Shown here: in pieces, positions 26,920 through 62,808 of the stretch
Position numbering within the stretch: position 1 is the stretch's first letter
Layout: each line of letters opens with the position of its first letter
NCBI RefSeq assembly: GCF_964204645.1
Contig: NC_134029.1
Span: forward strand, 12,488,850 to 12,552,849
DNA from: Tubulanus polymorphus
Taxonomy: Eukaryota > Animalia > Nemertea
Direction: 5' to 3'
Length of the DNA stretch: 64,000 bases
Translations under genes and position numbers: made by a program
Notes under the pieces: generated by a model
Told to the model about the DNA's origin: nothing
Databases searched by the model: none
What the model saw: the letters and a program-made list of their open reading frames with translations, nothing else

Positions 26920-26963
26920 ATTCTAACGTGTTAATCAAATTTTAATAAAAATATGTATTATAA

Positions 26964-27317
26964 ATGGAGAGTAAACAAACACACAGTGAGAACAACAAAT
27001 TATTTCTAGATAGAATTAAAGATATAACAAATGTAAAATCTGTAAATTATAAATTCAAAAAGTTAACAGAATTAACAATCCATAAGAAATATCTAATTAC
27101 AAATATTGATACAGTTACTAATAACTATGGAGATAAATTAGTTATACACTTAGAATATGAAGGATTAAAAGGAAATACACATAAATTCAGAACATATTTA
27201 CCGGATAGATTTCATAGATTATCAAGTGAAGATTTAGAAGAATTATGTTCTGGAGATTTCTATTTCGTATACAAAGGTAAGAATGAAAAAGGGCACCATG
27301 AAATAGATTTCGAATGA
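26964..27317 (+). CDS. Polinton hypothetical protein
   Basis: Intact ORF, TAAATG start, homolog at 4411..4737. Confidence 0.75.
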   Translation: MESKQTHSENNKLFLDRIKDITNVKSVNYKFKKLTELTIHKKYLITNIDTVTNNYGDKLVIHLEYEGLKGNTHKFRTYLPDRFHRLSSEDLEELCSGDFYFVYKGKNEKGHHEIDFE

Positions 27318-27334
27318 GAAAATATGTAAAATAA

Positions 27335-28097
27335 ATGGTAGAATTAAAAGAATACAGAATATTTGTTGATTCTAGAAGACTTACAAATTATAAATCTCAT
27401 AATTTACTAGTACAATTAGATAGAGAATTTAAGAATTGTGTAGATTTAAAATAAGTTAATATAAGTTTATGTAATTCTTTTTACAATATATCGAATAAAA
27501 CTATTGAACACAGAGCTTTTTTAATTTTTAATAAAAATAAAAATGAATGGGTCTATATATATTTAAAACCGGGGTTATATAATTTAGATACATTAGCACA
27601 AGAAATTAATAGAAAAGCCTGGCACAAATTAGGTAGTAGTTCTGGGTTTAGTATTAGATTTTTTAAAAGTGAGAGTTCTGATAGAATAAAGATAAGTTTG
27701 TCTAATGGTGAAAAACATAAATTTATGGTAAAAAAAACCTTTAGCTAAACTGTTAGGAATTCTTCCAGATAGATCTTTTAAAAATATTGATGCTGTTACA
27801 CCAAACTTAATACCTTACACACATTTTTATATTTATTGCAATTTAATCGATCCTACAAAAACATTCGAAGCAACTAAAGATATAACTTGTAATTCTGGTT
27901 TACTAAACATTTTACCATTGAAGAATGTTAAAGAATTTGGAACGCAAATAAATTATAATTTAACAGAATGTGATTTCAAACCATGCATTCCTCGTTTTAA
28001 TAATTTTTGATTAGAAATTAGAAATCACAATGGATACTTAATTGATTTAAATAATTTCCCTGTAATTTATGAATTAGTTATAAGATGTAGAGAGTAA
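27335..28097 (+). pseudogene. Minor capsid (penton-like) protein
   Basis: Homolog of 56493..57247 (LKPGLYNL, FYIYCNLID, IRNHNGYLIDLN); stop at ~27452, frameshift at ~27730, stop at ~28008. Confidence 0.75.
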
Positions 28098-28113
28098 TTT
28101 TTTCACTATATAA

Positions 28114-28455
28114 ATGAATATAACTGTTGGACCGAGTATATGTTTTGGGTTTGATTTTAAACATGGTAAAGAAATGAGAATTAAACTAAATGATGTAATT
28201 ACTGATATAAAAAGTAAATCATTTAACAATGCGTCAATGATTGATAAAGAAAATTATAATATAGAAAAAGTAATTGATTTAATTAAATCACCTTTAGAAT
28301 ATTATGAATTAAATGAAGATGGAATTATTGATGATATCAAAAACATATTATCCAAAATATATGATAATCATCAAAGTAGTAATGAAATAAATGTTGAATT
28401 AATCATCACTAAGATAACTAAATATTTTGATGATAGTAATTTTTTTGATAAATAA
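28114..28455 (+). CDS. Hypothetical protein (113 aa)
   Basis: TAAATG start; identical protein at 57264..57605. Confidence 0.7.
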   Translation: MNITVGPSICFGFDFKHGKEMRIKLNDVITDIKSKSFNNASMIDKENYNIEKVIDLIKSPLEYYELNEDGIIDDIKNILSKIYDNHQSSNEINVELIITKITKYFDDSNFFDK

Positions 28456-28677
28456 ATGAGGGATAATAAGTGGATAATAACTGGATTATATAATGGCGCA
28501 TTACTATCAGTTGGAACTGTTGGTTATTCAATGGTATTAAAAAAAGTATTTAAAATGGGAAGTGTTAATGTTGATAGATTTGATATAAATGATATTTTAA
28601 AATTAACATTAGCAGTTACTTTATCTAATTCAACTATTGATTATTTGGAAAAACGAAAATATATTCCTCCCATATAA
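28456..28677 (+). CDS. Small hydrophobic protein (73 aa)
   Basis: TAAATG start overlapping the previous stop; frameshifted copy at 57606..57826. Confidence 0.65.
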   Translation: MRDNKWIITGLYNGALLSVGTVGYSMVLKKVFKMGSVNVDRFDINDILKLTLAVTLSNSTIDYLEKRKYIPPI

Positions 28678-28701
28678 ATGCATAATTTTTTTGCTAAATA
28701 A

Positions 28702-29117
28702 ATGGCTTCTGCAATTATAACTATTATAGGATCGGCAATTGTTAACGCTTTAGCATTTACTGGTGGTGGATATTTATTTAAACATATTGAAAAAAAAGTT
28801 CATTAGGAGAACAAAGAAGACATAACTTAGCGTTAGAGAAATATAATAAAGCAGCAGAAGAATATAGAGAAAAAAGATAAAACTATATGGATTATATTAA
28901 CAAGGAATTATATGATCAGAAGATTTCACATAGAGATTTTCAATCAGTTGATGATGCAATGAGTTTAAATAACGCGGTAACAAATAAAGAAAAATTACAT
29001 CTATACAAACCTAAATTATCAGATTATTATACCCCGAGTAAAGAACAACAGAAATATGAAATAATATGGATTTTAGGTGGAACTGTTATATTTGTAGCAT
29101 ATAAATTTACTAATTAG
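28702..29117 (+). pseudogene. Small membrane/coiled-coil protein (MASAIITIIGSAIVNALAFTGGG...)
   Basis: TAAATG start; A-run frameshift at ~28790 and TAA at 28878; the 76-aa ORF is its C-terminal half. Confidence 0.65.
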
Positions 29118-29136
29118 TAATTTTTTTTCTAAATAA

Positions 29137-29571
29137 ATGGAAGATAAAGTTGATAGTATTGATATTATTCCTCATGATATAAATAAAACTAAATTAAAAA
29201 TATATTTAGAAAAACAAATATTAGAATTTGAAAGTGACTTGAAGATAAAAAAGAAAAAATATTTAAAAAGTAAAATTATATATTATCTTATTATTAGTGG
29301 TTCGGTTACAATTAGTTCTGTAATAACATTTCTAGCAATGTTCAGTCCATTAACACCTTTAGCTATATCAATTGGTGTATTAGGATTAAGTTCAAGTGTT
29401 TTAACTGGTATAAGTTCAAAATTAAATATAAAAAGTAATAAAGAAAAAATTAAAACTAATATAAAAGAAATTAATAAATTAAAGAATACACTAGACTATA
29501 TAATTAGTTTAAATGGCCATATAACAGTTGAAGAACAAGATAAATTATTAAAAGAATTAATAAATTATTAA
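29137..29571 (+). CDS. Two-TM membrane protein (144 aa)
   Basis: Two hydrophobic segments; identical protein at 58288..58722. Confidence 0.7.
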   Translation: MEDKVDSIDIIPHDINKTKLKIYLEKQILEFESDLKIKKKKYLKSKIIYYLIISGSVTISSVITFLAMFSPLTPLAISIGVLGLSSSVLTGISSKLNIKSNKEKIKTNIKEINKLKNTLDYIISLNGHITVEEQDKLLKELINY

Positions 29572-29587
29572 TTTTTTTATTATATAA

Positions 29588-30780
29588 ATGGTAGATAGTT
29601 TTCCAAAAGCTTTCCAATATAATAAATCAATTAAGTATAATATTCCAGCAATAGATTTTAATAAAGATATTACATATAGAAATGAAGTTTTAGATTCATT
29701 AACTAATTTAGAAATTTATGTTACTGAAACTAATAATTTTAATGCAAAGATGGAAAATATATTTCATGTATATTTAATTAATTTTAAAAAATTGGAAGAT
29801 GAAAAACAATGGTTATTAAAATCTAATATGAAGTATTGGCAGAAGCAATTAAATTTTGCTGTTTATTGCGCAACAACAGGATGTGGAATAAGTTGGAATG
29901 ATCATTTAAATAAACCAAGTTTACCATTGATGTTATCACTTTTTAGATTTCATACTTATTTTCAAATAAAATTAATATTAGATGAATTAGAATGTCCTTT
30001 ACTAAAAAAAGGACTTCTTAAATTAACTGATGATGAATTAAAACAATTTCCTGAAAAAGCACGTAGAGAAATTAAAGGTATGCAAGAATCAGCTGGTGAA
30101 ATTGCTAATATTAAGATAAGATTTTCTAAAATAACCATGTTAGAAAAAGAATTAACTAATGCAAATGAAGAATTAAAACAATTAGAATTAAATAGAGATC
30201 TTCAATTAATCGAGGAAGCTGATTATGAAAGCAGAAAGTTAGCTTTAGAAAAAGAAATAGATGATTTAGAATATAATATAGAATTACAGAAAGAAGAAAG
30301 AGATACATTATTAAAATCATATGATCTTAATCATATTAAAAAATTAAAAGTTATTTTGAGTTATTAAAGTTATTAAAAGATTTGTTGATAAAACCAGATT
30401 CTAAAATATCATTAAAAGATAGAATAAAATTATTATTTAAATTAGAAGGAATAACAATTCTTTCAATTCTAACAGCTGTAACTATGTTATTTACAACAAT
30501 TGGTTTAGCAATATCAAATGCCTTAAAATCTACTCGTACTCCCAATAAACCAGATAAACCCCCAGGTAATAATTCTATACAAGATAAAGTTAAGGATGGT
30601 TTAAAGAAATTAGCAAAATATTTATGGGAACTATCTAAAAAATCTGCTGCAGCTTTACCAGGAATTATTGCATCAATTGTTGGTTTTATATTGAAATCTG
30701 CAGGAAACATTATTAACTTTGCTGCTGAACATATTATTTTATTTTTAATTACAGTTGTAAGTGCTATTATTTTTGGGTAA
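29588..30780 (+). pseudogene. Deletion-derived fusion of two conserved Polinton genes
   Basis: Matches 58739-59150 up to ELECPL, then jumps to sequence homologous to ~60760-61588; frameshift near 30360. Confidence 0.75.
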
Positions 30781-30850
30781 GTAAATATGATATCAAAAAA
30801 TATCAAGTTACCATGATAAAAAATAAATAATTAATTTTTTAGTTAAATAA

Positions 30851-32101
30851 ATGAGTGGGAGTTATATAAGTCCTTCTAAGATTTCTAGAATATCTGATGC
30901 TATTAAAGCAGAAAGATCACATCATATAATTACTCATAACCCTTCAAATATTAATCCTGATGAAACTTTATATGTTAGAATCCCTCGATTAACACAAAAT
31001 ACTTTTTACGTTCCAAATAGTATTTATTTATCAGCCGATATAAAAGTAATCGGTAATAATAATAATTATGTTGTTGATAATGTTGGAAGATATTTGATTG
31101 AAAAATTAACTATAAAGATTGGTCCAGAAACAGTTTTCTCATTAGATGATTATAATTTATTTATGCATTATAAAGATTTATGGTTAACTAAAGAAAATAG
31201 AAATAATATGATATTTCAAGGAATCCAATCAGAAAACCAAAATAAATTAAGATCAGAAGCTAATAGCGCAATATCAACTAATGCTGTAGATAATTTGATT
31301 AAAAAGATTTATGGAAGCAAATATAAAATTCCATTAGACTTTGAATTGATAAATAACAACGCACCTTTATATAAATATGTAATTCAAGAAGATATTATAT
31401 TTGAGATAACATTTGCTCCTGTTAATGAAATTGTAATATCTAGCGTTGTTAAAGATATGGGTTATAAATTACCGAATATATGTTTAGAATATGATACAGT
31501 AACTGATGAAAATATTTCAAGTATAATTCAAACTCAATACAATCAAGGACTTTCATTATTATATGATTATATTGATAAATTTAAAACCGTAACTATTAAT
31601 GCAAATGATGAAATAATTAATGAGAATATTAACTTCCCAAGAAGATCTATTAAAGGTATATTAATATTTTTTACCATTGCAACATATACTAATGGCGCAA
31701 TAAATGTTGATAATTATTATAATCCTGAAATAACAAAAGTAGAAATAACTATCGAAGGAATAGCAAATAAAATATTTTGTCAAGGAATGAGAATGATTGA
31801 TCAGTGGCCAGAAATTAGAAAACATTTTATGAATGAAAAAGTAAAATCATCTGAAAATTGTAACATTAATCAAATTGATTATTATACCGGTAATAAATAT
31901 GCATTATGGTTAGATTTTAGAACAACAGAGGATAATTCATTACATGGTTCTGGAAAAAAACTACAGAACACTAAAGATGGAATACAATTATTCATGACAA
32001 AGAATAAAGGAATCAAAAAAAATTTTAAAATGCACATTTATATTATATCTGACGCGCAATTAAATATTGTAAATTCACAATTAGATAGTGTTATGTATTA
32101 A
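30851..32101 (+). CDS. Major capsid protein (double jelly-roll), inferred
   Basis: 416-aa beta-rich ORF of MCP size in a Polinton; motifs THNPSNI, NICLEYD, YALWLDFRT.EDN.LHGSG recognised from invertebrate Polinton MCPs. Confidence 0.8.
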   Translation: MSGSYISPSKISRISDAIKAERSHHIITHNPSNINPDETLYVRIPRLTQNTFYVPNSIYLSADIKVIGNNNNYVVDNVGRYLIEKLTIKIGPETVFSLDDYNLFMHYKDLWLTKENRNNMIFQGIQSENQNKLRSEANSAISTNAVDNLIKKIYGSKYKIPLDFELINNNAPLYKYVIQEDIIFEITFAPVNEIVISSVVKDMGYKLPNICLEYDTVTDENISSIIQTQYNQGLSLLYDYIDKFKTVTINANDEIINENINFPRRSIKGILIFFTIATYTNGAINVDNYYNPEITKVEITIEGIANKIFCQGMRMIDQWPEIRKHFMNEKVKSSENCNINQIDYYTGNKYALWLDFRTTEDNSLHGSGKKLQNTKDGIQLFMTKNKGIKKNFKMHIYIISDAQLNIVNSQLDSVMY

Positions 32102-32133
32102 AATTTTAACTTTAATAAAAAATCTTATATTAA

Positions 32134-32925
32134 ATGGAAGGAGGTAAAGTATATAAACATATTCCATACATTGAAAAACATGAAAATAATGATGGTTTAT
32201 ATTATGTAATACCTTGTAATATAGCTTTGATATTTGATCCTATTTTCAAAATTTATAAAACTAAACTAATAGAAATCGATAATAATAAAAGTGGTGTTGT
32301 TGATAATTTAAGTAATGTAATTGATAATAATGTTTTACCTTCGACATCTGATAATGTTTTACCTTCTACATATAATAATGAAATAATATTAGATTATAGT
32401 GAAAATAGAAATTATTGTGATTATTGTAAAGGTGAATTTTCAAACGCTCCATCAAATTGGAATAAACATATGAATACAAAGGTACATATTACTAATGTAA
32501 TAGAACATGTTGGTTTAAGAGAATTTATAGAACACCCATTTAGATATGTTACAAAATTTGTTTCAAATAAAAAAGTAAATGGTCAAGAATTATATGAAGA
32601 TTTTTTATTAGCAACACCTAATAAAGATGAATTAGATTTAACTGATGCTAATAAAATATTAGGATCAAATATTGTAAATGAAATATTAGGAGCAAACACT
32701 AAAAAAGATGATAATGAAAATGGTGCCATACGGCACCCACATGGTGATATAGTTACAGATATTGATATTAAAGATTATGTGGACACACTTTTGGTGAAAG
32801 ATAAAGAAGAAACTTTTGATGATGCGGTAGAAAGGATGAATAAGTATAACAATAAAACAACTATTGATGATGATACGGTAGAGAGTTTGAATAAATTGTT
32901 AGGGTCTGATAGTGAAAGTGATTAA
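32134..32925 (+). CDS. Hypothetical protein with one C2H2 finger and acidic tail
   Basis: YCDYCKGEFSNAPSNWNKHMNTKVH; TAAATG start. Confidence 0.7.
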   Translation: MEGGKVYKHIPYIEKHENNDGLYYVIPCNIALIFDPIFKIYKTKLIEIDNNKSGVVDNLSNVIDNNVLPSTSDNVLPSTYNNEIILDYSENRNYCDYCKGEFSNAPSNWNKHMNTKVHITNVIEHVGLREFIEHPFRYVTKFVSNKKVNGQELYEDFLLATPNKDELDLTDANKILGSNIVNEILGANTKKDDNENGAIRHPHGDIVTDIDIKDYVDTLLVKDKEETFDDAVERMNKYNNKTTIDDDTVESLNKLLGSDSESD

Positions 32926-32954
32926 GATATTAATTATATTTAATTCAAATAATA

Positions 32955-33335
32955 ATATTAGTTGAAAATTGTATAAAATAATAGAAAATAAAAAGGGGTT
33001 TTTAAGTATTTAAGGTATTTAAGGTATCTAATACATATCTAATACATATCTAATACATATTATTTGAAAATACCTTAAATTATATTTCTTTTTTAAATTT
33101 ATGTTGAAACCTCAGTAATAATGAATAACCTTTATTATTTTCAAACTTATTCATATATTAGTTGCAATAATAAAAAATAAATTGGTTGAAAATTGTATAA
33201 ATAATATTTATTTTAAAAAAGGGGGTTTTAAGTATTTAAGGTATCTAATAGGGTATCAGGTATTAGGGTATCAGGTATTAGGGTATCAGGTATTGGGGTA
33301 TCTAATAGGGTATCTAATACATAGGTATATAAATA
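32955..33335. repeat. Intergenic duplicated block with short tandem repeats between convergent genes
   Basis: ttgaaaattgtataa...aaaaggggtttttaagtatttaaggtat occurs twice, followed by (atctaatacat)n and (gggtatcaggtatta)n. Confidence 0.8.
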
Positions 33336-33336
33336 G

Positions 33337-33949
33337 TTATTTTATACATTTATATTCATATGGAAATTGTAATCTCAGTAATAATTTTGAACCTTTATTA
33401 TTCTTTAATTTATTCATATATTCATCATATAATTCAGTAGGTATAATTTGATTTTCTTCCAATGATTGTTGCATAGATTTTCTATCTTTATTGTAGAATA
33501 AAACTAGAAATCTTATATTCTCCCTAAAGTCTTTAACAATTGAATTATATTTTTGATTTAAAACCCATGTTGTTATCCCAAAATGTCTTCCAGAGAAAGC
33601 TAAATAACATAACTCACTTTCTCTCACTTTTGAATCATGTAAATTTTGCGCAATCATCTAAAATGAATAATGTATTTGATCCTTTATAAGTATCAATTGC
33701 TATTTTTATACAATTATCTAAATTTTCTTTTACTGTTTTAGGATCTAATATAATAAACTTTTTTATCTTAACTATATCTCTATTATATGTTTTATTCATT
33801 TCATAAGTAGGACAGAATAATATTATATTATCAAAATGATTCTTATAAATAGTTTCTAGCAAGTCTAATATGAAATGTGCTTTACCACAGTTTGTTACTC
33901 CAGTAACTAACATATTATGCGGTTCAAATATAAATAAATCTTTATTCAT
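33337..33949 (-). pseudogene. A32/FtsK-like packaging ATPase (element B), one frameshift
   Basis: GVTNCGKA, LFILDDC, SGRHFGITTWVLNQKY; split near 33645. Confidence 0.92.
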
Positions 33950-35027
33950 TTATTCTTTTAATTTTACTAGATAAAATCCATTCATTAAATTTATCATCGT
34001 ATCCTTTATATTTCACCAAAGAATACTTTTTTCCTTTAAGAGTTTTTGTTTTCAATACTTTTTCTATTTTGTATTCTATTTCATCTGGATTTGGTACAAG
34101 TGATAATTCTTGTTCATAGAAATAACCTAATATTTCTTCATCTTTTAGATCTTCTAGTTTATAAACAAAAGGTTTAGTTAATATTATCTTTTTAATCTTA
34201 AATATTTCTTCAGTAAAATTAGGAGTATAACCTTTATAAAAGATTTTTCTATATTTAGATATTCTAACGTGTTGTCTTATTTTAAATTTAGGTTCGCCGA
34301 AATCATGTGTAACAAACGCTCCGTATAAATTATTCCAAACTATTTCCGAATTATCTTCTTTTCTAGCTTGTATAGGTTTCATATTTATAGAACTACGTTT
34401 AGAATTATTATAACCTTTCACTAAATCATCTAACACATCGATATATTTATATGTTTCATTAGCAGTAAAGTATTTCCACATTCTAGTTTCCAATGTTTTA
34501 TTAAATCTTTCTATAATAGATGCTTTTTTATCTGAATGTGTTGAAAAATAATCTACATCGTTATCAGATAATAGTTTTTTAAAATGTTTGGTATAAAATT
34601 CCTTACCTTCATCAAATTGTATCTTATCTGGAATAGCTTCTTTAAATATAGATTTAAAAGCATTTGTTACTTCTATACAAGTTTCATTTTTGATTGGAAT
34701 TGACCATGCGTATCTACTGAATATGTCTATAACATTCAGTATCCAGAAATATCCTTTGTTGTATTCTTCTAAGTTCTTCATATCAATTAAATCTGCTTGC
34801 CATTGTTGATCGATATATGAAACCATAACTTTTCTTGTTAAATAGGTTTTATCCATTTTCTTATGTATTTGATATGTGGGTTGGTTTTGTAACCATGATT
34901 TTAATTCACTATATTTTATATCACTATTATCAGATTTTATTTTATTCCATAATTCTGAAACGTTAGAATATGATACTTCACTTTCTGGGTTATAATATAA
35001 ATCTCTTAAATATTGTTCTTTTTTCAT
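33942..35027 (-). CDS. Retroviral-like integrase with chromodomain (open frame)
   Basis: QWQADLID, QFDEGKEF, IIERFNKTL; C-terminal LVKYKGYDDKFNEWI. Confidence 0.95.
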   Translation of the reverse strand: MKKEQYLRDLYYNPESEVSYSNVSELWNKIKSDNSDIKYSELKSWLQNQPTYQIHKKMDKTYLTRKVMVSYIDQQWQADLIDMKNLEEYNKGYFWILNVIDIFSRYAWSIPIKNETCIEVTNAFKSIFKEAIPDKIQFDEGKEFYTKHFKKLLSDNDVDYFSTHSDKKASIIERFNKTLETRMWKYFTANETYKYIDVLDDLVKGYNNSKRSSINMKPIQARKEDNSEIVWNNLYGAFVTHDFGEPKFKIRQHVRISKYRKIFYKGYTPNFTEEIFKIKKIILTKPFVYKLEDLKDEEILGYFYEQELSLVPNPDEIEYKIEKVLKTKTLKGKKYSLVKYKGYDDKFNEWILSSKIKRINE

Positions 35028-35033
35028 CTTATT

Positions 35034-35516
35034 TTAACCCATTAATAATAATTTAGATTTAGTTTCAATAGCTTTATGATTTGACTTATTTTCTGGTATA
35101 ATAGGTTTATTGTCTGTACACGGATAACTAAGTTTCCGATCATCATTGGAATCATCTTTATCATCAGATTTGAATTTTGATTTATATATTACACCGGATA
35201 ATATAATAACTGTGATTAACCCAATTGTAATATATAATTTATAATTACTTCCAGCATTAGAAGAATCAGATGGATTATCATTCGAATCAATATCGGATAA
35301 TTTCTGTGATTCATTTATATCAGTTAATTTCTTTTTCTTATCTTTTTTTAATTCTGAAGATCTTTTACCTAATTCTCTTGCCCATTTAATTTGTTTCTCT
35401 ATATCAGTTAATTTCTTTTTCTTAGCTTTTTTTAATTCTGAAGATCTTTTACCTAATTCTCTTGCCCATTTAATTTGTTTCTCGGATCTAGCCTTTTTCT
35501 TAACTCCATCACTCAT
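35034..35516 (-). CDS. Basic single-TM protein with internal 27-aa duplication
   Basis: EKQIKWARELGKRSSELKK twice; hydrophobic LYITIGLITVIILSGVIY. Confidence 0.7.
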   Translation of the reverse strand: MSDGVKKKARSEKQIKWARELGKRSSELKKAKKKKLTDIEKQIKWARELGKRSSELKKDKKKKLTDINESQKLSDIDSNDNPSDSSNAGSNYKLYITIGLITVIILSGVIYKSKFKSDDKDDSNDDRKLSYPCTDNKPIIPENKSNHKAIETKSKLLLMG

Positions 35517-36111
35517 TTATTTTAGTTAATTTTTGTTCTGATTCATTTTCTGTTTCACTGTTTGGTTGTAGTACATCTGTTTCGTTCTTACCTGATTTAT
35601 ATTCCATAGGCTTGATATTCGAAAATGTAATGACACCAGTAGAAATTAATGTCATAACCGATCCTAATTGGAATGAAGCATAACCAACCCATTTTTGTAA
35701 TTCAGTCATAACTAAGTAGTCATTTTTCAAATCACTATATAATTTATTTTCGTCATCAATTGGTATTAACTGGTTACATAACTTAGAGTAACATTTGACA
35801 ATACTATCTGAAATAGAATCATTTATTCGAGCCAATCTAGCTTCTTCATAAATCTTAAAATATTTTATTACTTTATCGGGTTTCATAGAGTCTAGTTCTT
35901 GAAAAGTAATGATTCTATTTAAAAACTCATTAGTTTTTCCACCGGCAATCAATAGTTCTATATGGTGCTTACAATATAAATAGTATTCATAATCTATATT
36001 GTTATTAACTTGAATAGAATTAGAAACAACTGTATCTTTATTATCACTAATACCCAAATCATCTAATGTCTTTTCAATATCAATACTATTCTTATTAGAT
36101 TTCTTTGACAT
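35509..36111 (-). CDS. Polinton hypothetical protein
   Basis: Homolog in A (4913..5803); TAAATG start. Confidence 0.75.
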   Translation of the reverse strand: MSKKSNKNSIDIEKTLDDLGISDNKDTVVSNSIQVNNNIDYEYYLYCKHHIELLIAGGKTNEFLNRIITFQELDSMKPDKVIKYFKIYEEARLARINDSISDSIVKCYSKLCNQLIPIDDENKLYSDLKNDYLVMTELQKWVGYASFQLGSVMTLISTGVITFSNIKPMEYKSGKNETDVLQPNSETENESEQKLTKINE

Positions 36112-36360
36112 TTATATTAGAGAAAAAAAGCAAAAAAAATATTATAAATATTCTTCAAATGATACTAGATAGTTAAAGTTAAAGAACTCTAGTATTGACT
36201 ACTGATACAAGCTAATTGAGTTTAAAGAATTTCTATTTGAATCTATTCAAAATATAAAGTTTTCTCTTTTTGAAAAGAAAGTATTAAAAATCTAATAGAA
36301 TTCACTAGCTAGTTGAAGTTATTGTTTTTTAAATACTTTTTATTTAAATTAGGATTTAGA

Positions 36361-37240
36361 TTATCTCACTACTATTGTCTAGCTATTAGGAGCAGTAACT
36401 ATAACTGTCCAGATAAGTCATTTCGGATTCTCGATAATAAATCCTAAAACTGAAAATAAATTCAAAGAAACGACTGGTGGAAATACTATTTCATGAACAC
36501 ATATATTTTATTCTACAATCATTATCGATTTCCACATTCCAAGCCGCTCCAGAGAGGAGCGGTAAGGTATGCGTGGAATGCAGGAATCAATAAAATACAA
36601 TACAACATCTGTCACTGTGCGACATTAACATTGAAATTCCGACAAACGTAATGCATTGAAAGCCTATGCAGTAAGGCTAAATGAGTCTCATGAGTTGAAA
36701 TATCCATTATTTCTGATTCCACATCCATCTATCTTCACTTTCTTGATTCAATAGTCTTCATTTTGTTATCTAAAAGATAAATATCTAGCGTAGAATAAAA
36801 CTAACTTGAAGTTGTAGTTGTAAAATATTAATTACAACACTTAAACATGACCATTTTGTGGCTCATCTTACCAGGATAAGTTTTACATGTTTAGCGTTTT
36901 CCAACGCCTTAATAACAACAAAAACAGTACTTACATTTATAACTGTAAACTCCTAAAATTGTGTTTATAGAGAGAATATCCTATACGTTCCTATGCTTAT
37001 GTGCTGCGCGCTTATAACTGCCAGTTATTCACTAGCTAAACACTGTCTGGTGCAACAGATGTTCCTTCCTTTGTAATATAATTGATTAATCCTTTTCAAC
37101 TGAAATAGCACATTCGATCAATATTCAAATGAGATACACCCTATTCAACTGAATATGAAATGCGGCACAGATGTTTTTGTAAACAACCTAATACAATACA
37201 TACAGGCGGTTTGACATAAATCGAGAGTAACCGGTTTTCT
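36361..37240. ncRNA. Candidate structured non-coding region
   Basis: No ORF in the track; more GC-rich than flanking genes; several hairpins visible; includes a motif conserved in element A. Function and strand unproven. Confidence 0.3.
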
Positions 37241-37246
37241 AAGCGT

Positions 37247-37897
37247 TTAACATTCAACGCATTTTTCATTATGTGTTGAGTTCCATAATTCAACAAATGT
37301 CTTTGCTTTATCCAGTTGATCTAAATATAACTGTATATCTAGTTTATTAGATTTAATTATATTTTCTTTCTTTTCAAGAGGCCTTAAATTTCTCCAACCC
37401 CAAATAAGTTTTTTATTGTATTCATCATTCATGTTAAATTTAGAAATCGGCAACACATGATCAATATGAAAGTATTCACCATAATTATCTATATTCATTT
37501 TATCGTCGAATTGATATATTATCCATGATTTTAAGAATTCATCTGAACAACCCAATAGATTAGATAGTGTTTCTGAATGTGTTTCTTTGTTGAATAATTG
37601 TGTTAATCTAGATCTTAAACATTGTTTCAATCTAAAATTAAGATCTGTTTGATATCTTTCTCTCATATATTCTGCCATATAATAATTATAATGTTCTATA
37701 TCATCTTCTCGGTATTTTTTGGTATATAGTTTATAACAAGTTTTACAGCAATATTGAAAACCATCTTTGCTAATCTTACGCTTACTAAATTCTGTTAATG
37801 ATTTATCTAATTCACATTTAGAACACTTCTTGTAGTATATGTTTATAACGCCAGTGTTATTTGTAATATTTATAGTTTGTGGTTGTTCTGGTTCCAT
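37247..37897 (-). CDS. HNH-type endonuclease with N-terminal CxxC...CxxC
   Basis: KCSKC...CCKTC, LLGCS, FHIDHVLP...WRNLRPL...ENIIKSNK, a pattern familiar from giant-virus and phage HNH proteins. Confidence 0.8.
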   Translation of the reverse strand: MEPEQPQTINITNNTGVINIYYKKCSKCELDKSLTEFSKRKISKDGFQYCCKTCYKLYTKKYREDDIEHYNYYMAEYMRERYQTDLNFRLKQCLRSRLTQLFNKETHSETLSNLLGCSDEFLKSWIIYQFDDKMNIDNYGEYFHIDHVLPISKFNMNDEYNKKLIWGWRNLRPLEKKENIIKSNKLDIQLYLDQLDKAKTFVELWNSTHNEKCVEC

Positions 37898-37974
37898 TTA
37901 TTATATGTATTTTTTACTAAATTGGTTAATATTTTAGAATCCTCTTCCATTTCTTCGACCAACGTCATCCTTTT

Positions 37975-38226
37975 TCATTCCTCGCTGCTTTTGATAAGTT
38001 GTTTCGATTCCTTGATATCAAATTCCTCAACGTATTGTTCATTATTTGGATCATTATTCCATAATTCAATAAATTTCTTTGCCTTTGTTAACTGTTCTGA
38101 ATATAACTGTAAATACTCTAATTTCAATTTATTCTCTAAATGTGTTTTAGTTTTATTGTGTCTTGCTTTTTGGGATTTATCTACATTGATATTACATGTT
38201 GGACAGTAGTACTTATTTGCTTCCAT
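37975..38226 (-). CDS. Chimeric 83-aa ORF: pPolB N-terminal Zn finger plus HNH-like tail
   Basis: First 38 aa nearly identical to the pol start; QLYSEQLTKAKKFIELWN resembles QLYLDQLDKAKTFVELWN of the HNH ORF. Confidence 0.6.
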   Translation of the reverse strand: MEANKYYCPTCNINVDKSQKARHNKTKTHLENKLKLEYLQLYSEQLTKAKKFIELWNNDPNNEQYVEEFDIKESKQLIKSSEE

Positions 38227-38456
38227 TTTAATACTAAATTTTTTATTAAAATTGATTTTAGAAGTTATTCATTTATATTTTATTCATATATATGAATATT
38301 TTAAGAGTAATAGGGATTATGTTGTTTAATATCAAAGGTTGAAGGGGCGAGTAAGTAAAAATAAAAAATAAATTCGAGTTTGCGAGAATTTATTTTTTAT
38401 TTTTTATGAGCTCGACCTTTCGACCTTTGGTATGAAACAACATATTCCCTATTACT
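38113..38456 (-). repeat. Right TIR of B
   Basis: Reverse complement of 22675-23019, roughly a dozen differences by eye. Confidence 0.95.
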
Positions 38457-48566: not shown

Positions 48567-50043
48567 TAATAAGAAACACGCGAATCTCAATAGGGTTTTA
48601 TGTGATGTAACAGAAAACCCTAATAAGAAACACGCGAATCTCAATAGGGTTTCCTGTGATGTAACAGAAAACCTAATAATAATAAGAAACACGCGAATCT
48701 CAATAGGGTTTTCTGTGATGTAACAGAAAACCCTAAATATAGCTGCAAAGCAGCGATAACGGGTTTTCTGAGCAGGCGTGCTATTCATAGTTTGAAAAGT
48801 GGATAATATAAATATATCAATACGGGATACGCATTTGACGTGTCAAGTCACACCAATGCGGTTTAACATAACATAATTTATAGTTATAGTCAAATTGGGG
48901 GTTACTCGGGTCGTTTAGTTGTCTGCGGAGTCGAGTAGATTGGTTACCCGTCTGTAACATTGGTTACGGAAACGACTCGTCAGCTTGATGAGTTGTATGT
49001 ATTATGATTGTGCGCCACCTGCATCTTCCGAAATAATGTTCATATAATTATTTGAAGGGAGGATTGAAATCAATTATCAACGTACATCTGAATATGTAAG
49101 TCCTTAGTAACTTTCTGTTGCAGAGGGCATAGAAAAGATTTTGAAATTATTTAATTAAAATATAAATTTTATTTACGAAAAATAAACTATTATGGTCAGT
49201 ACAAATTGAAAATTCATAGTGTATTTTTAAGAACAAGCTTACATAGCTTACAGAATACATCACGTACATTTGAATTTTATAAGTGATGGGTAAAAATCAA
49301 CGTGTGACAGAAAAAAATGTAGTTAATTATTCAACAATATCGAAATATGTGCTCTCTTTTTAAACTAATGGAGTGATACGCAATTAATCACATGGCCTGT
49401 ATTAAAAGATAGAACATACAAGTTGGATATTTATACGTCGAAACATGTGAACAGAAACTAAAACTTTGATATCAGTGACCAGTATCGAATTACACAACGA
49501 CAATTGGCTTTAAACTCAACAAACATTATTAAAGAATGTTTCAAACAAAATGCTTTATATAACGACATGAATAAACTTGTTTTACAAAACAAGAAAGTAC
49601 ATTTTGAACTTTTGAATGGTCGAATCCCATTTATTCACAGTAACCTGTGATGTGGCGATCCTCGGAGCTATCATTCTTGATGACGTCACTAACAAGTGGT
49701 CACGGCCGTCGCGTGCACTCATTTCTTTGAAAATCTAGCTTCCTCGCGGAGCGGGACCTGGTGACGCTGCGCCCCGCCCCCTTCGTGCTGAGATATATCT
49801 TATTCCCAGTCAGCAAAGACAGGTTCTAAAGATCATAGAGTGCATCGCTGGAGGGTTTCCGATCCAATTTGAATTGGTGCGGTGGCGCTCTCAATGCGAA
49901 AGTTTTTGTGAATTTTTTAGTCGGCGACGGACGTTTATCGTTGTAAGTGATGTAATATGAGTAATAGGAAGATGTGGGTTTCATACCAGAGGACGAGAGG
50001 ACGAGACACCACTCATCACCACAGGTAATTTTTTTCCTAATAA

Positions 50044-53000
50044 ATGGGGGAGAATGAACACCAGCCAGAAAACAATAATGTTAATAAAAATCAATATTAT
50101 TGCACATATTGTAAAAAATACGTCGATACATCTAATAAAACACGACATGAAAAAACTGCAAATCATATAAAAAATGTAATAGATTTTGAAACTCCAGAAA
50201 ATTCCAATGAAAGAAAAGAAAGATTAGAAAATATGAAATAAAATGTGAAGTTTGTAATGAATTTATAGTAAAAAGGAATTATAATAGACATCTCGAATCA
50301 CAAAAACACCATCAAAATTTGAGTAATAATCTTTTAGGAAAAGATTATTTTGATGATAAACCTCAAAAAGTAAAAAAACCAACTTCAAAAACTAAATCCA
50401 TTTCAAATAAACCTTACATGGAAAATGTTAGAAATTATATTGATTCACTAGAAATAAAAGATACAATTGAAATTTTAGAAACATTACGTAGTAAAATTGG
50501 TCCTGCAGCTATTATATTTAGATTTTTTAAAGGTACAACAATAGAAGATTATAGTAAATTTAATGAAATAATAGAAAAAATACTAGATTTGATAACAGAT
50601 GTTGAATATCCAAAAATTAGTATCTCTGGGAAAGTAAGTTTTTAAAGTCAGAAGATAAAATGGATTATAATATTCAAACACTCTCTGATGAAATAATTTC
50701 AAAAACACAAATAAAAGAGAAGTAAGAAAAAATATTTAATGAATTTAAACGTCATATTGAAGAAAGATATTTTGAGGGTTCTGGCTTAACATTGAATGAA
50801 ATTATATTTTTATATTTAAATGTTTATAATACAAAAAGAAATAAAACATCAAAAAGTAATAAAATGATTAAAAAGGATTCAAACTTTACAACAGAAAAGG
50901 AGGATATTAAAGGATCATCTTATATTAAATTACCATTTACAACAAAAGCAGTAATAAATGTTCAAAATGAAGATAATAAATGTTTTCTGTGGGCAATTAT
51001 TAGTTGCTTACATCCAACAGAAGATATTACACATAGTTTTAGAATAAAAAATTACCGGAAATAAGAAACATTATATAAAATTGATCAATTATCCAGTAAC
51101 TATAAAAATGATTTCTAAAATAGAAAAAGTTAATAATTTAAAAATAAATGCAATTACCAATTAATGCAATTACCAAAGACAAAAGGTGAAAATATTAAAG
51201 ATTATACATTGGAAGCTTTATATTTAACAGAATATTATGATGATGAAAATGCTATAGATTTGTTATATTACAAAAAAGATGAAAATGAACATTATATGTG
51301 GTTAAAACAAATTGATTTATTCTTTAGAACAGAAAGTGATCATCATCGTAAAATTTATCTATGTAGAAAATGTTTATCTAAATTTATGACTGAGAATACA
51401 TTATTAAAACATAAAGAATTATGTGATAATAAAGATTTTTGTAAATTAATAATGCCAACAGAAAAAGATTATAAATTGAAATTTACTAATCATAAATTTA
51501 AGAATATTGTTCCATTTGTAATTTATGGGGATTTTGAATCGTTGAATAAAGAATTAACTGATCAAGATAGAAAAGAAATATATAACAAAAAGCAATTATT
51601 AAAATCAATGGATAAAGGAAATGAATTAAATGAAGACACAATACAAGACCCACCAATTATAAATACAATTAAAAAAGTTCATCAAAGAGCTGCTGCTTAT
51701 GGAATTTATATAAAATCAAATTATCCTGAATTATATGAAAATCAATATATTTCTTTTAGAGGTGAAAATGTAGTTAATGATTTTTGTGATAAAATGATTG
51801 AATTAGAAAGTGATTTTGCAAAATTATTAAACAAAAATAAAAGAATAGTTATGACAAAAGAAGATGAAATTGATTTTAATTATGCAACTCATTGTTGTTA
51901 TTGTGAAAAACGTTTTTATTCATTTGATAAAAAAGTTAGAGATCATGATCATTTAAATTCAAAATATCGTGGAGCTGCTCATGAAGATTGCAATTTACAA
52001 GCAAAGAAAGTCAATTTCGTACCAATATTATTTCATAATTTATCAGGCTATGATACCCATCTATTTATAAAACAATTATCGGGAAAATTGGGCGCAATTA
52101 ATCAAGAAATAGAAGAATATAATGCTATGAATGGTGTAAATGTAAGAAAATATGATTTTAAACTATTAGCTAAAACATCTGAAAATTATATTTCATTTCA
52201 ATTTGGTTGCATTAGATTTTTAGATTCTTATAGATTTCTAGCAAGTTCATTAGATAATTTATCAAAAAGTTTAGTTGATAATGATTTTGTAATAACTCGA
52301 TATTATTATCCAAATGAACAAGATTTTAAATTATTGAGATATGAAGGCGCAATTCCTTATTCATTTTATAAAACACACAATGATTTTAATGTAACAGAAT
52401 TATTAAAAGATCAATTTTATGATCAATTAAAAGAGGAGTATGTGAAAGACGAAGTGTTTAATAGAACATTAAATATTTGGAACCATTTTAAGATGAAAAA
52501 TCATGGTGAATTAGTTGATTTATATTTAAAATCAGATGTTATGATATTGGCTGACATATTTGAAAAATTTAGAGAAGTTAATTTGAATCATTTTAATGTT
52601 GATCCTTGTTATTGCTACTCTAGTCCTGGTTTAAGCTGGCAATGTGGTTTAAAATACACAAATGTAGAATTAGATTTATTTAAAGAACCAGACATGGTTT
52701 TATTATTTGAAAAATCAATTAGAGGTGGAATTAGTGGTGTTATGGGAGATAGATATTTTAAAGCAAATGATGAATATAAATTATTATATATTGACGCCAA
52801 TAATTTATATGGTTGGGCAATGATGCAACCTCAACCATGTAAAAATTTTATATTAACAGAAGATGAAAATGGTGATAAAACTGATTGGGAAAGCGCAATT
52901 GCGAGTTTAAAAGATGAAGCACCAATTGGTTATTTCTTTGTAGTTGATTTAGAATATCCTGAAAATATAAAGTTTAAAACAAGAAACTTACCTTATTGCC

Positions 53001-55104
53001 CAGAACATTTAACTGTAGATGATAGTTATTTAAGTGAATACCAGAAGAAAAGAAAACCGAAAGATCATGTTTTTACAGAAAAATTAATACTTACTCAAAA
53101 TAATAAATACAATTATATTGTTCATTATAGAATGTTAAAATTTTATCTAAAACAAGGAATGAAATTAAAGAAAGTACATAGATATATTGAATTTAATCAA
53201 TCGAAGTGGTTAGAAAAATATATAGATTTCAATACTCAACAGAGAACCATATCAACAACAGATTTTGAAAAAGATTTCTTCAAATTAATGAATAATAGTT
53301 TTTATGGTAAAACATGTGAAAATATTAGAAATAGAAATGATATTGAATTAGTAAATAATTCTGAACGACTAAGACATTTACAATCAAGTCCTAGACATTT
53401 AGGAAATAAAAGATTTGAAGATTATTCAACAGCAGTTAAATTAAAAAGAACGTCAATGAAATTTAATAAACCTATATTCATTGGTTCAACTGTTTTAGAA
53501 GTATCAAAATTATTAATGTATGATTTTTATTATGTTTTACAACCACTTTTTGGGGAAAAGCATATTGAAATATTATATTTTGATTCTGTAACAGCTAACA
53601 CCCCAATATCATTAAAATGTAATGATAAAATATTGATAAGAAGAATTTCAGAAATAATTCCAAAACAAAATGAATGTTATATTTCATATGGTGAAAAAGA
53701 ATTAATACAAATGAATGGATTAATGGATGTTTGGACAAGAAATGGATGGAAAAAATCAAAGAATGTTATTAGACATAAAACAAATAAGAAAATCTATAGA
53801 GTTGGAACTAAATTAGGATTTGTAGATGTTACAGAAGATCATAGTTTAATTAAACGAAATGGCGATGAAATAAAACCAATTGATATAAAAATTGGAGATG
53901 AATTATTACATAAAAGATTTTTCCAAAGAATGAATCATATGTCATTTGATGAAATTATTGATAATATTTATGATATAGAACCCGAAACATTAGAAGTAAA
54001 AGAATATTTTATCAAAGGATTTTTCATGGGTGATGGTTCAGCAGGTGTGTATAATTATGTTTGGGGTAATAAATATTGTTGGTATTTATGCAATCAAGAC
54101 TTGAAATTATTAGAAAGAATTAAGAAATTCTGTGAAGAAGTTTATTCACATAAAACATTTAGAATCATGGATGTTATGAAATCATCAGCAGTTTATAGAA
54201 TACTTGTAAATAATCCTAAAGATTTTGCTATAAAATATAATGATGAATTCTATATTCATGCAATAGTGAAAAGTAATACTTCAACTAAAGAAAAGATAGT
54301 ACCAGATTATGTATTAAATGCAAAAAATAATTTAAGAAAGTGGTTCTTCATTGGATTCTATGCCGCAGATGGCACTAAAAAATTTACAAAGGATAAAAAG
54401 ATAACCTTTGCACAAAAAGGAAAAGTTGCTATATCAGGATTAAATATATTATGCAGTTCATTAGGATTTAATATGAATATAGAATTAATTAAATCTAAAC
54501 CAAATTGTTTTAATTTAAGGCATGTAGAAAAAGAATTAACAGAAGAAGTTAAAGATTTATTTGAAATATATAACCCAACTGACTATGTTTATGATTTATC
54601 AACAGATGATGGAACATTCAATTCTGGGTTCCCATTAATCCAAAAAATACTGACAGTTACATACTAAAAATCAAGACAAATGACATAACAAAAGATTTAA
54701 AAACATTAAAACATCATTTTGATTTTAGCAATTATCCCAAAGATCATGAACTATTTAGCAATGATAATAAAAAGATTCCTGGTAAATTTAAAGATGAATT
54801 AGGGGGTGATGAAATGATTGAATTTGTTGGGATAAGAAGTAAAATGTATAGTTATAGAACAAAAGATCATGAAGCTAAAAAGTTAAAAGGAATAACAAAA
54901 CATGTGGTTGATAAACATATAGAATTTCAAGATTATATAAAGTGTTTATATAAATCAATTGTAATAATACATAAAATGAATTGTTTAAGATCAGAAGATC
55001 ACGAGATGTACATTAATGAAGTTGAAAAAACTAGTTAGAATCCATTTGATGATAAAAGGCATATTTTAGATGATGGTATAAAAACATTACCTTATGGCCA
55101 TTAA
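50044..55104 (+). pseudogene. pPolB of C, intein-containing, with several stops and frameshifts
   Basis: ORFs 50044, 50319, 50792, 51164 and 54814 align in order to the pol of B; all Exo and Pol motifs present. Confidence 0.93.
53585..54648 (+). mobile_element. Intein with LAGLIDADG homing endonuclease (~355 aa)
   Basis: YFD|SVTANTPI (block A), VDVTEDHSLI (B), FIKGFFMGDGS (C), FFIGFYAADG (E), YVYDLST (F), ...KN|TDSY (G, after restoring one A at 54642-54647); absent from B. Confidence 0.93.
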
Positions 55105-56425
55105 AACATAAAATCAATATCATCAAACTCGAAATCACTATTTGTTTCTTCTTTTTCATTTAATTGTTCTTGTATAATTTGTTTAGGTTCTTCCATTTCA
55201 ATTTTCTCATTTAAATAAAGTTCTATCTTGTACCACATTTCATCTCGCTCCCTTTGTTTCTTTTTGTTCGTTAATTCATCAAATGGAATTATAATATCGA
55301 TGTTCAAATAATTTACAATCTTATTTAAAAAGAATTCATAATTAATTGAATCTGTTATTCTATTTTCCAAATGATACATTAATATTTGTTTGAATATTTT
55401 TTTTATATTTTCCATATCTTCTTCTGTTAATTTAGGTTTTTCATAATAATCGTTAAATAATAAATATAAATACATTTTCTTTTGTTTTGTGTTAAATGTT
55501 GATGGAATAATTGTTTTTATAATATCTTGTTTAGTTATTTCACCATTTTTATTTTCTATCATTTTCATTTTTTCAAGCCATTGCATATATTCTGGTGTAT
55601 GATCTTCCGTAGAAAATACCTTAAAAATTTCATCTAGATAATTTAATTTTGGATCTATAAGAATATTTCTAGTTTTTTTATCACCCCATAAATTCTTTTG
55701 CCATCCACATTCATTACAAAATAACACAGTACCTTCTTGTCTTAAGGTCGCATAATAACATTGTGGGCATTTTTGTTTATAATTTATTGGTAATAGATCT
55801 TCATTAAGCTCCTGGTATTTTCTTACGTTTTCTTTATGTTTTATTGTTCTATTATGTAGATTTGAATTACTTGTTGTAATAATCAATTTACAATATTTAC
55901 AATAATATGTTTTTCTTGTTAATTCATTATATTGTTTTCTAACTTTTCAACTGTTTCTTTATTATCTGGTAACGTTTTCTCATATTTTATTTTTTCTAAT
56001 ATTTTATTTTTTCTTTCATTGAATTCCGCTTCAAATTTATTAGAAATTTTATCTATATGTATTTTACGAAATTGATGATTCTCCCAAGCTTCTATATTTT
56101 CAGGGTTATATTTTATTCGACAAGGCTCACAGAAATGATCTTTTATATTATCCTTGTCATAGAATAAGAAAGGTCTTTTCCAAATAATTTCAGGTTCAAC
56201 TTCAGAATTACTATTACTTTCATTACTATCAACATTAGCCGTTGCGCCATTAATTTTACACTTCTCTGAATGTTTTTTAACATAATTTCTTGAGAATAAT
56301 TTATCACATTTTGGGCAGTTTGTTTTAGGGGGTTTATAATTTTCATCATGTTTTTTCATATGTCGAGCCATATTACTTTTTCTTAGAAGTTCACCACAAA
56401 TTTCGCATGGTATCTTCTCATCCAT
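55101..56425 (-). pseudogene. Multi-Zn-finger protein with VLTF3-like C-terminal domain, one frameshift
   Basis: Adding one A near 55937 joins the 168- and 261-aa ORFs through LEKQYNELTRKTYYCKYC. CPQC...CNECG plus INYEFFLNKI...L...KKQRERDEMWYKI recalls poxvirus/NCLDV late transcription factor 3. Confidence 0.6.
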
Positions 56426-56492
56426 TTATTTTGGAAAAATTTTATTAAAATTAATTTTTAGTGATGAGCGTTAATTTTTTATGTTATAAATA

Positions 56493-57247
56493 ATGGTAGA
56501 ATTAAAAGAATATAGAATATTTGTTGATTCTAGAAAACTTACAAATTATAAAACACATAATTTATTAGTTCAATTAGATAGAGAATTCAAGAATTGTGTT
56601 GATTTAAAATTAGTTAATATAAGTTTATGTAATTCTTTTTACAATATATCGGATAAAAGTTTTGATCATAGATTGTTTATGATTCATGATAGAAATATGG
56701 ATAAATGGTATCATCTATTTCTAAGACCAGGATTATATAATTTAGAAACATTATCTCAAGAAATTAATAAAAGAGCTCAGTTAAAAGTGGGTGAATCTGT
56801 TGGGTTTAACATTAAATTTAATAAAATTGATAGTACTAATAAAATAAGAATAAAGTTAACTAATGAACAATATAAATTCATAGTAAGAAAACCATTAGCT
56901 AAAATGCTAGGAGTTAATCCAAATAAAGTTTATTCAAATGTTGATACTACACCAAATATAATACCTTTTACGTACTTCTATATTTATTGTAATTTAATTG
57001 ATCCTACAAAAACATTCGAAGCAACTAAAGATACAATTTGTAATTCTGGTTTATTAAATATTTTACCATTAAAAATGTCAAACAATTTGGAACTCAAATA
57101 AATTATAATTTAACAGAATGTGATTTTAAACCTTGCATTCCACATTTCAATAATTTCAAATTAGAAATAAGAAATCATAATGGTTATTTAATTGATTTAA
57201 ATAACTTTCCTGTGATATATGAATTAGTTATAAGATGTAGAGAGTAA
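56493..57247 (+). pseudogene. Minor capsid (penton-like) protein, frameshift near 57075
   Basis: IFVDSR, NSFYNI, LRPGLYNLETLSQEIN, YFYIYCNLID, LLNILPL, then IRNHNGYLIDLNNFP in a shifted frame. Confidence 0.75.
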
Positions 57248-57263
57248 TTTTTTCATTATATAA

Positions 57264-57826: not shown

Positions 57827-57850
57827 ATGCATAATTTTTTTGCTAAATAA

Positions 57851-58268: not shown

Positions 58269-58287
58269 TAATTTTTTTTCTAAATAA

Positions 58288-58722: not shown

Positions 58723-58738
58723 TTTTTTTATTATATAA

Positions 58739-61588: not shown

Positions 61589-61608
61589 TTAATTTTTTTG
61601 TTAAATAA

Positions 61609-62808
61609 ATGAGTGGGAGTTATATCAATCCTTCGAAGAATCATAGAATATCTAATGCTATTAAAGCAGAAAGATCACATCATATAATTACTCATAACCC
61701 TTCTAATATTAATCCTGATGAAACTTTATATGTTAGAATTCCTAGATTAACACAAAATACTTTTTATGTTCCAAATAGTATTTATTTATCAGCTGATATA
61801 AAAGTAACTGGTCATGATAATAATTATGTTGTCGATAATGTTGGGAGATATTTGATTAAAAAATTAACTATAAAGATTGGTCCAGAAACAGTTTTCTCAT
61901 TAGATGATTATAATTTATTTATGCATTATAAAGATTTATGGTTAACTAAAGAAAATAGAAATAATATGATATTTAAAGGTATTCAATCGGAAAACCATAA
62001 TAAATTAAGATCAGGAGCTAATGACGCAATAGTAACTCGTGCCACAGATAATTTGATTAAAAATATTTATGGAAGCAAATATAAAATTCCATTAGACTTT
62101 GAATTGATAAATAATAATGCACCTTTATATAAATATGTAATTCAAGAAGATATTATATTTGAGATAACATTTGCTCCTGTAAATGAAATTGTATTATCCA
62201 GCGTTGTTAAAGATATGGGATATAAATTATCGAATATATGCTTAGAATATGATACAGTAACTAATGAAAATATTGCTAACACAATTCAAACTCAATACAA
62301 TCAAGGATTTTCATTATTATATGATTATATTGATAAATTTAAAACTGTAACTATTAATGCAAATGATGAAATAATTAATGAGAATATTAACTTCCCAAGA
62401 AGATCTATTAAAGGTATATTAATATTTTTTACCATTGCAACATATACAAATGGCGCAATAAATGTTGATAATTATTATAATCCTGAAATAACAAAGGTAG
62501 AAATAACTATCGAAGGAACAGCAAATAAAATATTTTGTCAAGGAATGAGAATAATAGATCAGTCAAATTGTAATATTAATCAAATTGATTATTATACCGG
62601 TAATAGATATGCATTATGGTTAGATTTTAGAACAACAGAGGATAATTCATTACATGGTTCTGGAAAAAAACTACAAAACACTAAAGATGGAATACAATTA
62701 TTCATGACAAGGAATAAAGGAATCAAAAATTTTAAAATGCACATTTATATTATATCTGACGCACAATTAAATATTGTAAATTCACAATTAGATAGTATTC
62801 AATATTAG
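61609..62808 (+). CDS. Major capsid protein of C, with in-frame deletion
   Basis: Highly similar to 30851..32101 but lacks ~16 aa (WPEIRKHFMNEKVKS...). Confidence 0.8.
   Translation: MSGSYINPSKNHRISNAIKAERSHHIITHNPSNINPDETLYVRIPRLTQNTFYVPNSIYLSADIKVTGHDNNYVVDNVGRYLIKKLTIKIGPETVFSLDDYNLFMHYKDLWLTKENRNNMIFKGIQSENHNKLRSGANDAIVTRATDNLIKNIYGSKYKIPLDFELINNNAPLYKYVIQEDIIFEITFAPVNEIVLSSVVKDMGYKLSNICLEYDTVTNENIANTIQTQYNQGFSLLYDYIDKFKTVTINANDEIINENINFPRRSIKGILIFFTIATYTNGAINVDNYYNPEITKVEITIEGTANKIFCQGMRIIDQSNCNINQIDYYTGNRYALWLDFRTTEDNSLHGSGKKLQNTKDGIQLFMTRNKGIKNFKMHIYIISDAQLNIVNSQLDSIQY

Follow-up and report, generated by a model that had tools for sequence, protein, structure and literature searches.

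Three Polintons in the window

The window, i.e., the whole analysed stretch of 64,000 nucleotides, consists of repeat-rich eukaryotic DNA of about 38% GC, which carries three AT-rich inserts, A, B and C, of about 23% GC. All three inserts are Polintons. Element B (22675..38456) ends in terminal inverted repeats, is flanked by a target duplication of 6 bp, has the same promoter classes as element C, lacks VLTF3, and encodes an rve integrase and a Pox_A32 ATPase, both above the Pfam cut-off. The terminal repeats of B (22675-22826, 38357-38456) contain an internal 71-nt inverted repeat, and its insertion site lies inside a dispersed host repeat. Element C starts at 49960 and its right end lies beyond the window, so terminal repeats and target duplication were seen for B alone. 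The left end of C (AGTAAT...), together with the T-run and TAAATG start of its pPolB frame at 50044, occupies 49960..50050 (+). Element A (4079-7650), interrupted by a 31-bp satellite, represents the distal end of a family-C copy in inverted orientation; its terminus is 95% identical to the left end of C. The integrase region at the C end (63105-64000) is 98% identical to that of A and 76% identical to that of B. Between B and C (27329-32109 versus 56488-62816) the structural module is 88-93% identical and the polymerase 74%. Judged by these comparisons, B and C are mosaics. The integrase blocks have opposite orientations in the two elements.

The pPolB gene of element C (50044..55104, +) is broken at several places and carries a LAGLIDADG intein-like insert. 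It was recognized from its motifs and from tblastn matches to three viral contigs, L002-L004, while giving no Pfam match. The insert (53576-54660, +; LAGLIDADG Pfam 25 bits, above cut-off) is placed inside the catalytic YFD/TDS motif, which is also the insertion site of giant-virus PolB inteins; the B polymerase has no such insert. The major capsid protein gene of C, together with its late-type promoter, occupies 61590..62808 (+). Its Capsid_N match in Pfam is weak; in the ESM Atlas the protein scored 0.98, and Capsid_N is found in 10-14% of the members of the matched clusters. A second gene (56493-57101, +), divergent to the VLTF3-like gene described below, has a weak match to DUF5901 (E 3.6e-4) and is, from its position, a putative minor capsid gene. 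Pfam revealed neither an RNA polymerase nor a capping enzyme in the elements within the window, the right end of C lying beyond it, and likewise gave no match to VLTF2 or TBP.

A broken VLTF3-like gene in element C

The VLTF3-like gene of C (55101-56425, -) spans 1325 nt, or about 440 codons. It runs antisense to pPolB, with which it converges on overlapping TAA stops within a shared TTAA at 55101..55104, as stated in the preliminary description. The 5' frame (55919..56425, -) encodes 168 aa from its ATG and contains three zinc fingers (C2H2, C2HC and U1-like). The 3' frame (55101..55946, -) encodes 281 aa with a U1-type finger, a C4 zinc ribbon, the helical VLTF3 domain and an acidic tail. 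The break is located where the frames overlap, at 55919..55946 (-), a segment containing short A-runs. Several C2H2 fingers had been described. There are indeed four, CEIC..H..H, CPKC..H..C and CEPC..H..H in the first frame and CKYC..H..H in the second, all situated before the ribbon, but they are of mixed C2H2, C2HC and U1/matrin types, because of both their motifs and their Pfam scores (zf-C2H2 23.1 bits, below cut-off; zf-U1 30.6 bits, above cut-off). The ribbon (55707..55769, -) is likewise present, with its four cysteines invariant in all four aligned sequences, although the spacer is x13 (CPQC-x13-CNEC, continuing as CNECG) and not x14 as first reported. The C-terminal NY..FL.KI...W.KI pattern was found as described, and the alignment shows it to be mostly kept in three homologs.

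The earlier statement that B has no counterpart was confirmed by tblastn of both frames over the whole window, where the VLTF3 domain was absent from B and the matches were single zinc fingers only. The slot between polymerase and putative minor capsid gene is filled by an unrelated 117-aa ORF in B (26964-27317, +) and by the VLTF3-like gene in C (55101-56425, -); both of these swapped genes sit behind an A-rich box. Two fingers of the VLTF3-like gene resemble N-terminal fingers of the C pPolB (50074-50178 and 50238-50318; tblastn within the window, E 3e-4 and 0.014), a likeness which suggests domain shuffling within the element.

Relationship to VLTF3

We consider the C-terminal half very probably a divergent VLTF3, an identification upheld by two methods, ESM Atlas and Foldseek. 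For residues 50-262 the nearest Pox_VLTF3 clusters in the ESM Atlas scored 0.96, 0.95 and 0.95, and PF04947 occurred in 27 of 30 matches, on a calibration that covers whole proteins. An AlphaFold2 model built from the four-sequence alignment (pLDDT 79.7) consists of beta strands followed by helices. In the Foldseek comparison with viral structures, which had been proposed as a check, it matched cowpox VLTF3 (E 5.7e-6, prob 1.0, TM 0.60) and the late factors of two entomopoxviruses (E 1.4e-5 and 1.2e-4). Nine matches reached E<=0.001. Five of them are VLTF3 or late factors (cowpox, the two entomopoxviruses, a Megaviridae sample and a pandoravirus), and the other four comprise two unnamed proteins, one Feldmannia virus protein and one named exonuclease. 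Among the best 50 matches 23 bear VLTF3 or late-factor names. The alignments have rmsd of 9-15 A, with 15-25% identity to the named top matches. That poxviruses rank first in this model-based comparison should not be read as evidence of the donor.

Sequence profiles gave no such signal. PF04947 matched neither the frame at E<=0.1 nor the three homologs at E<=10; phmmer and profile searches of PDB sequences gave no VLTF3 link. In the word-indexed protein search the frame recovered 0 of 476 candidates, and alignment A2 recovered its own members only (1 of 2571 and 1 of 7799). The profile compared with the TFIIB ribbon gave E 1.5.

A single-sequence model (pLDDT 58) had no significant Foldseek match, with 11 VLTF3-named proteins among the best 50. 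Against the PDB its top matches, at a weak E of 0.09-0.19, were chains of pre-initiation complexes from poxvirus and yeast, presumably poxvirus Rap94 and yeast TFIIB. Such a putative TFIIB-likeness would favour the main alternative, which we hold to be rather unlikely overall, namely that VLTF3 serves as a TFIIB-like factor with host RNA polymerase II and turns on virion genes at TAAATG, helper-free, as an autonomous nuclear switch by which C serves B in trans. The integration and multiple copies of the element point the same way.

Homologs, read data and constraint

A search of 1.84 billion representatives at a threshold of E<=0.001 returned three proteins, P0001 (697 aa, 46% identity), P0002 (446 aa, 36%) and P0003 (281 aa, 40%). 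P0001 (E 3e-18, 2e-15) and P0002 (E 2e-6) align in their N-terminal parts with the 5' frame. Since P0001 and P0002 match both frames, the two halves form one chain in nature. The proposal of one gene split by a frameshift was thereby borne out, and the same intact homologs support the proposed finger fusion. P0003 has the ribbon at its N-terminus, followed by the helical domain and without extra fingers, and is the unfused form of the subfamily.

In a raw-read run labelled as this species, 168 out of 249 reads were length variants relative to the window inside the frame overlap; the remaining 81 may have the same break, or end too near to reveal it. Element C also differs from most reads by several further indels elsewhere. 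Being unlike most reads both at the overlap and at these indels, the window copy is decayed. Read depth was about 220-250 over the VLTF3-like gene, about 230-325 over the C polymerase and about 700 over the capsid gene common to B and C. As the depth of the gene equals that of the C polymerase and makes up one third of that of the capsid gene, it is a regular part of family C. B-type junction reads numbered 231 and 332 against the depth of about 220-250 on the C gene, so that both types are about equally common, which speaks against the use of host polymerase II. Three further raw-read runs (X6-X8) contained next to nothing of the element and were uninformative on expression.

For constraint, 40 of 258 variant sites were available, a selection favouring well-supported ones; four outside the gene were left out, and the remaining 36 were scored. 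Synonymous variants made up 14 of the 36 against 17% expected (p 0.0013), giving a pN/pS of 0.32 with sites judged singly and under a model free of transition bias, and third-position variants 18 of the 36 (p 0.028). Purifying constraint deduced from this pN/pS is indicative only. These data bear on the idea that the gene is a captured viral passenger without current role, with TAAATG a by-product of tight packing in AT-rich DNA. The broken window copy and the lack of the gene in B agree with it. Against it are the pN/pS, the intact homologs of the same architecture at 36-46% identity, and a read depth matching that of the C polymerase. This explanation is already unlikely, and we would put it lowest among those considered here.

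Promoter signals

Two promoter classes were observed in the window's Polintons. Taken without selection, 19 of the 39 first-ATG frames of at least 70 aa have TAAATG over their start. The background is 105 of 1336 for all ATGs of the elements and 12 of 565 for those of the host flanks. Among 25 hand-picked gene starts, which exclude nested and downstream pieces and were picked after the lists had been inspected, 19 have TAAATG (14 of 18 once homologous duplicates are removed). A T-run at -13..-8 precedes 13 of the 19 start sites versus 6 of 86 other TAAATG sites (p 4e-8). The T-class pattern, TAATTT[TG]T-N7-9-TAAAT, occurs 17 times versus 0.93 expected and is absent from 18.4 kb of host DNA; its sites precede the capsid and neighbouring structural-module genes, and the C polymerase. 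The A-class pattern, TTTARTAAAA-N10-11-TAAA, occurs six times versus 0.18 expected, at the VLTF3-like gene and, in B, at three accessory genes, the polymerase and the copy of the latter in the right terminal repeat. The two patterns are post hoc, defined on the same data.

The VLTF3-like gene has an A-rich box (TTTAATAAAA) and a TAAATG start at 56423..56449 (-). The A-rich box combined with T at -10 makes its promoter intermediate-like but ambiguous. A late-type T-run with TAAAT stands ahead of the putative minor capsid gene (56472..56495, +). Having T at -3, the TAAATG starts stand in a poor Kozak context. Within sense frames TTTTTNT occurs about half as often as expected (9 versus 18.4 +/- 3.4; lowest of 100 shuffles 8), whereas AATAAA is not avoided (74 versus 79 expected).

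According to the accessible text of PMC11980589, late promoters of vaccinia follow the consensus TAAATG with T at -10, intermediate ones have TAAA preceded by A-rich sequence, and A2L belongs to the intermediate class; PMC5294985 is a second source for these classes. TAAATG over the start codon with T at -10, as found here, agrees in sequence with the late consensus. Poxvirus-type polymerases are described in the available part of PMC6211774 as using TAAAT initiators that enclose the start codon, with poly(A) leaders made by slippage. These signals tell against the host polymerase II alternative. With the start codon inside the initiator, 5' ends should be leaderless or made by slippage, as is known for polymerases of the poxvirus type (PMC6211774, in the same part); the sense frames avoid TTTTTNT and not AATAAA; and neither VLTF2 nor TBP turned up in the elements within the window.

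As to the passenger explanation, stop-start abutment accounts for a few TAAATG starts, and in the T-class the TAA often doubles as the stop of the upstream gene, which fits tight packing. However, the T-class signals at 50026 and 56472 have no same-strand gene upstream, and the virophage contig L003 has TAAATG at 0 of 19 frames.

This contig is one of the three, L002, L003 and L004, found outside the window by tblastn with a related polymerase. L004 (1-9034; GC 38%) is a Polinton-type viral contig with pPolB, an rve-chromo integrase and an A32 ATPase. It has TAAATG at 7 of 11 frames versus a background of 11 of 328; its non-nested genes, seven in all, each start with TAAATG. L002 has TAAATG at 0 of 3 frames, and a T-run plus TAAAT right before the ATG of its polymerase. 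The strict T-class and A-class patterns had 0 matches in L002-L004, the alignment A2 profile matched 0 of 39 ORFs of L001-L004, and PF04947 is absent from the L003 record. Scanning viral contigs with the frame, A2, P0003, P0001, the major capsid protein and the integrase yielded no loci, nor did genome contigs. The sole locus of the metagenome scan, L001, was rejected as a finger-only match.

Possible role of the late factor

The gene is a real, divergent VLTF3, fused to fingers and broken in the window copy, in a kind of element from which VLTF3 is already known. For its role, the explanation that we prefer, and to which we give an even chance on the sequence data, is that family-C Polintons are virophage-like and would be transcribed by a co-infecting poxvirus-type virus, their own VLTF3 aiding the late genes. 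It had been suggested earlier that the gene may redirect or antagonise the late transcription of a helper virus, and the poxvirus-type TAAATG starts across the elements lend independent support to a helper; antagonism gained no support of its own. As neither an RNA polymerase nor a capping enzyme is encoded in those parts of the elements that lie inside the window, a helper polymerase presumably transcribes them.

The proposed course is as follows. The helper RNA polymerase would read the element genes, and the genes with an A-box (VLTF3 in C; polymerase plus three accessory genes in B) would come first, similar to the intermediate A2L of vaccinia. The element VLTF3 would then join the helper polymerase and the remaining late factors at T-run/TAAATG promoters, so that capsid, packaging and integration genes may be favoured. 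The added fingers, probably derived from the N-terminus of the element's own pPolB, could give extra nucleic-acid binding, and through this binding the factor is proposed to be biased to element templates. B-type elements, having no such gene, would depend on VLTF3 supplied in trans by C copies or on that of the helper. The wider claim that a multi-copy family of endogenous, probably animal Polintons are provirophages of a poxvirus-type virus, with a two-tier promoter code and a finger-fused late factor redirecting helper late transcription, we put forward tentatively, with somewhat less than even confidence.

Several points weigh against the helper explanation. Firstly, the VLTF3 promoter with T at -10 and the late-type start of the C polymerase do not fit a clean cascade. 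Secondly, the late signals of B are the same although VLTF3 is absent there, and the gene is thus not needed in cis. Thirdly, mriyaviruses retain VLTF3 while lacking an RNA polymerase, and they probably replicate in the nucleus according to the available text of PMC11253617, so VLTF3 alone implies no helper; the same viruses add to the case for host polymerase II. In favour of the helper are the TAAATG starts of L004, the TTTTTNT depletion, the poxvirus-associated PLVs, and helper-matched promoters elsewhere.

The antagonistic variant of the earlier suggestion is that the finger-fused VLTF3 is a decoy, which binds and blocks the helper late machinery, making the integrated element a host defence. 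The strong divergence (15-25% identity to named viral VLTF3) and the added N-terminal module are compatible with this, and integrated virophages and PLVs are able to suppress helpers according to the literature available in part. But the ribbon cysteines and the C-terminal motif are conserved. Moreover, late-type signals precede the virion genes of the element, which would therefore harm itself by blocking late transcription. We regard a decoy as improbable.

The promoter code and the late factor address the question of how integrated Polintons are transcribed and whether they need a helper in animals. If the helper explanation is true, 5' poly(A) leaders from TAAAT are predicted only in cells infected with a large DNA virus of the cytoplasm, and the promoter signature could sort Polinton families into helper-dependent and autonomous ones. 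VLTF3 is a diagnostic marker of Nucleocytoviricota in the part of PMC11253617 available; copies so divergent escape Pfam and are probably undercounted.

Comparison with known systems

The preliminary description placed VLTF3 outside the canonical Polinton set. As a patchy accessory gene it remains so, but its novelty is lower, since VLTF3 of coral polintoviruses and PLVs is already published. The available text of PMC11131425 reports it in stony-coral polintoviruses, citing Krupovic and Koonin 2016, and for this reason the gene alone is not new. It is found in about 30% of two PLV clusters, and in Zephyrvirus VC123/VC126 (10.64898/2026.06.19.733378, accessible part), and the adintovirus paper names VLTF in the legend to a figure (PMC8502044, accessible part). 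A PLV assignment of the VLTF3 in PMC12945077 was rejected, as that gene belongs to a giant virus. The coral polintoviruses and PLVs resemble element C in that they are Polinton-type elements among which VLTF3 is a patchily distributed accessory gene. They differ in that no finger fusion or promoter classes are described in the available texts, to which supplementary tables may add; the word promoter has 0 occurrences in the main text of PMC11131425. No report of poxvirus-type promoters in Polintons was found in the literature, where coverage is thin for subscription journals. The promoter code around the gene is the new and testable part. KilA represents a different virus-to-Polinton transfer (10.1101/2024.03.23.586382, accessible part).

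With VLTF3 of poxviruses and other NCLDV (vaccinia A2; PF04947 Pox_VLTF3, PF08792 A2L_zn_ribbon) the C protein shares the C4 ribbon followed by a helical domain, a predicted fold with TM 0.5-0.6 to cowpox and entomopoxvirus proteins, and an Atlas score of 0.96. In contrast to them, it is below Pfam detection, has four extra N-terminal fingers (about 220 aa) and is encoded by an integrated Polinton. The mriyaviruses are similar in their small genomes and in VLTF3 without RNA polymerase, whereas they belong to Nucleocytoviricota, have VLTF2 in some cases, lack DNA polymerase, use HUH replication and are presumed nuclear (PMC11253617, available text). The yeast cytoplasmic linear elements pGKL1/2 have a TAAAN initiator akin to the poxvirus one but, as given in the accessible part of PMC6211774, encode their own RNA polymerase and capping enzyme.

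Entomopoxvirus-associated PLVs are Polinton-like elements tied to poxviruses, with divergent capsids, and promoters and VLTF are unmentioned in the main text of PMC11296320. Helper-matched promoters are described for protist systems, e.g., mavirus and PgVV, in the available parts of 10.1101/2025.10.09.676808 and 10.1101/2022.07.28.501842. Mavirus with CroV, Sputnik, PgVV Gezel-14T and the Tetraselmis PLVs are, within the same literature, small integrating dsDNA elements without RNA polymerase and with helper-type promoters, like the elements here, but their motifs are those of Imitervirales, their hosts are protists and their helper is known. Compared with these protist virophages and PLVs, element C has a poxvirus-type motif, a late factor of its own and a putative helper.
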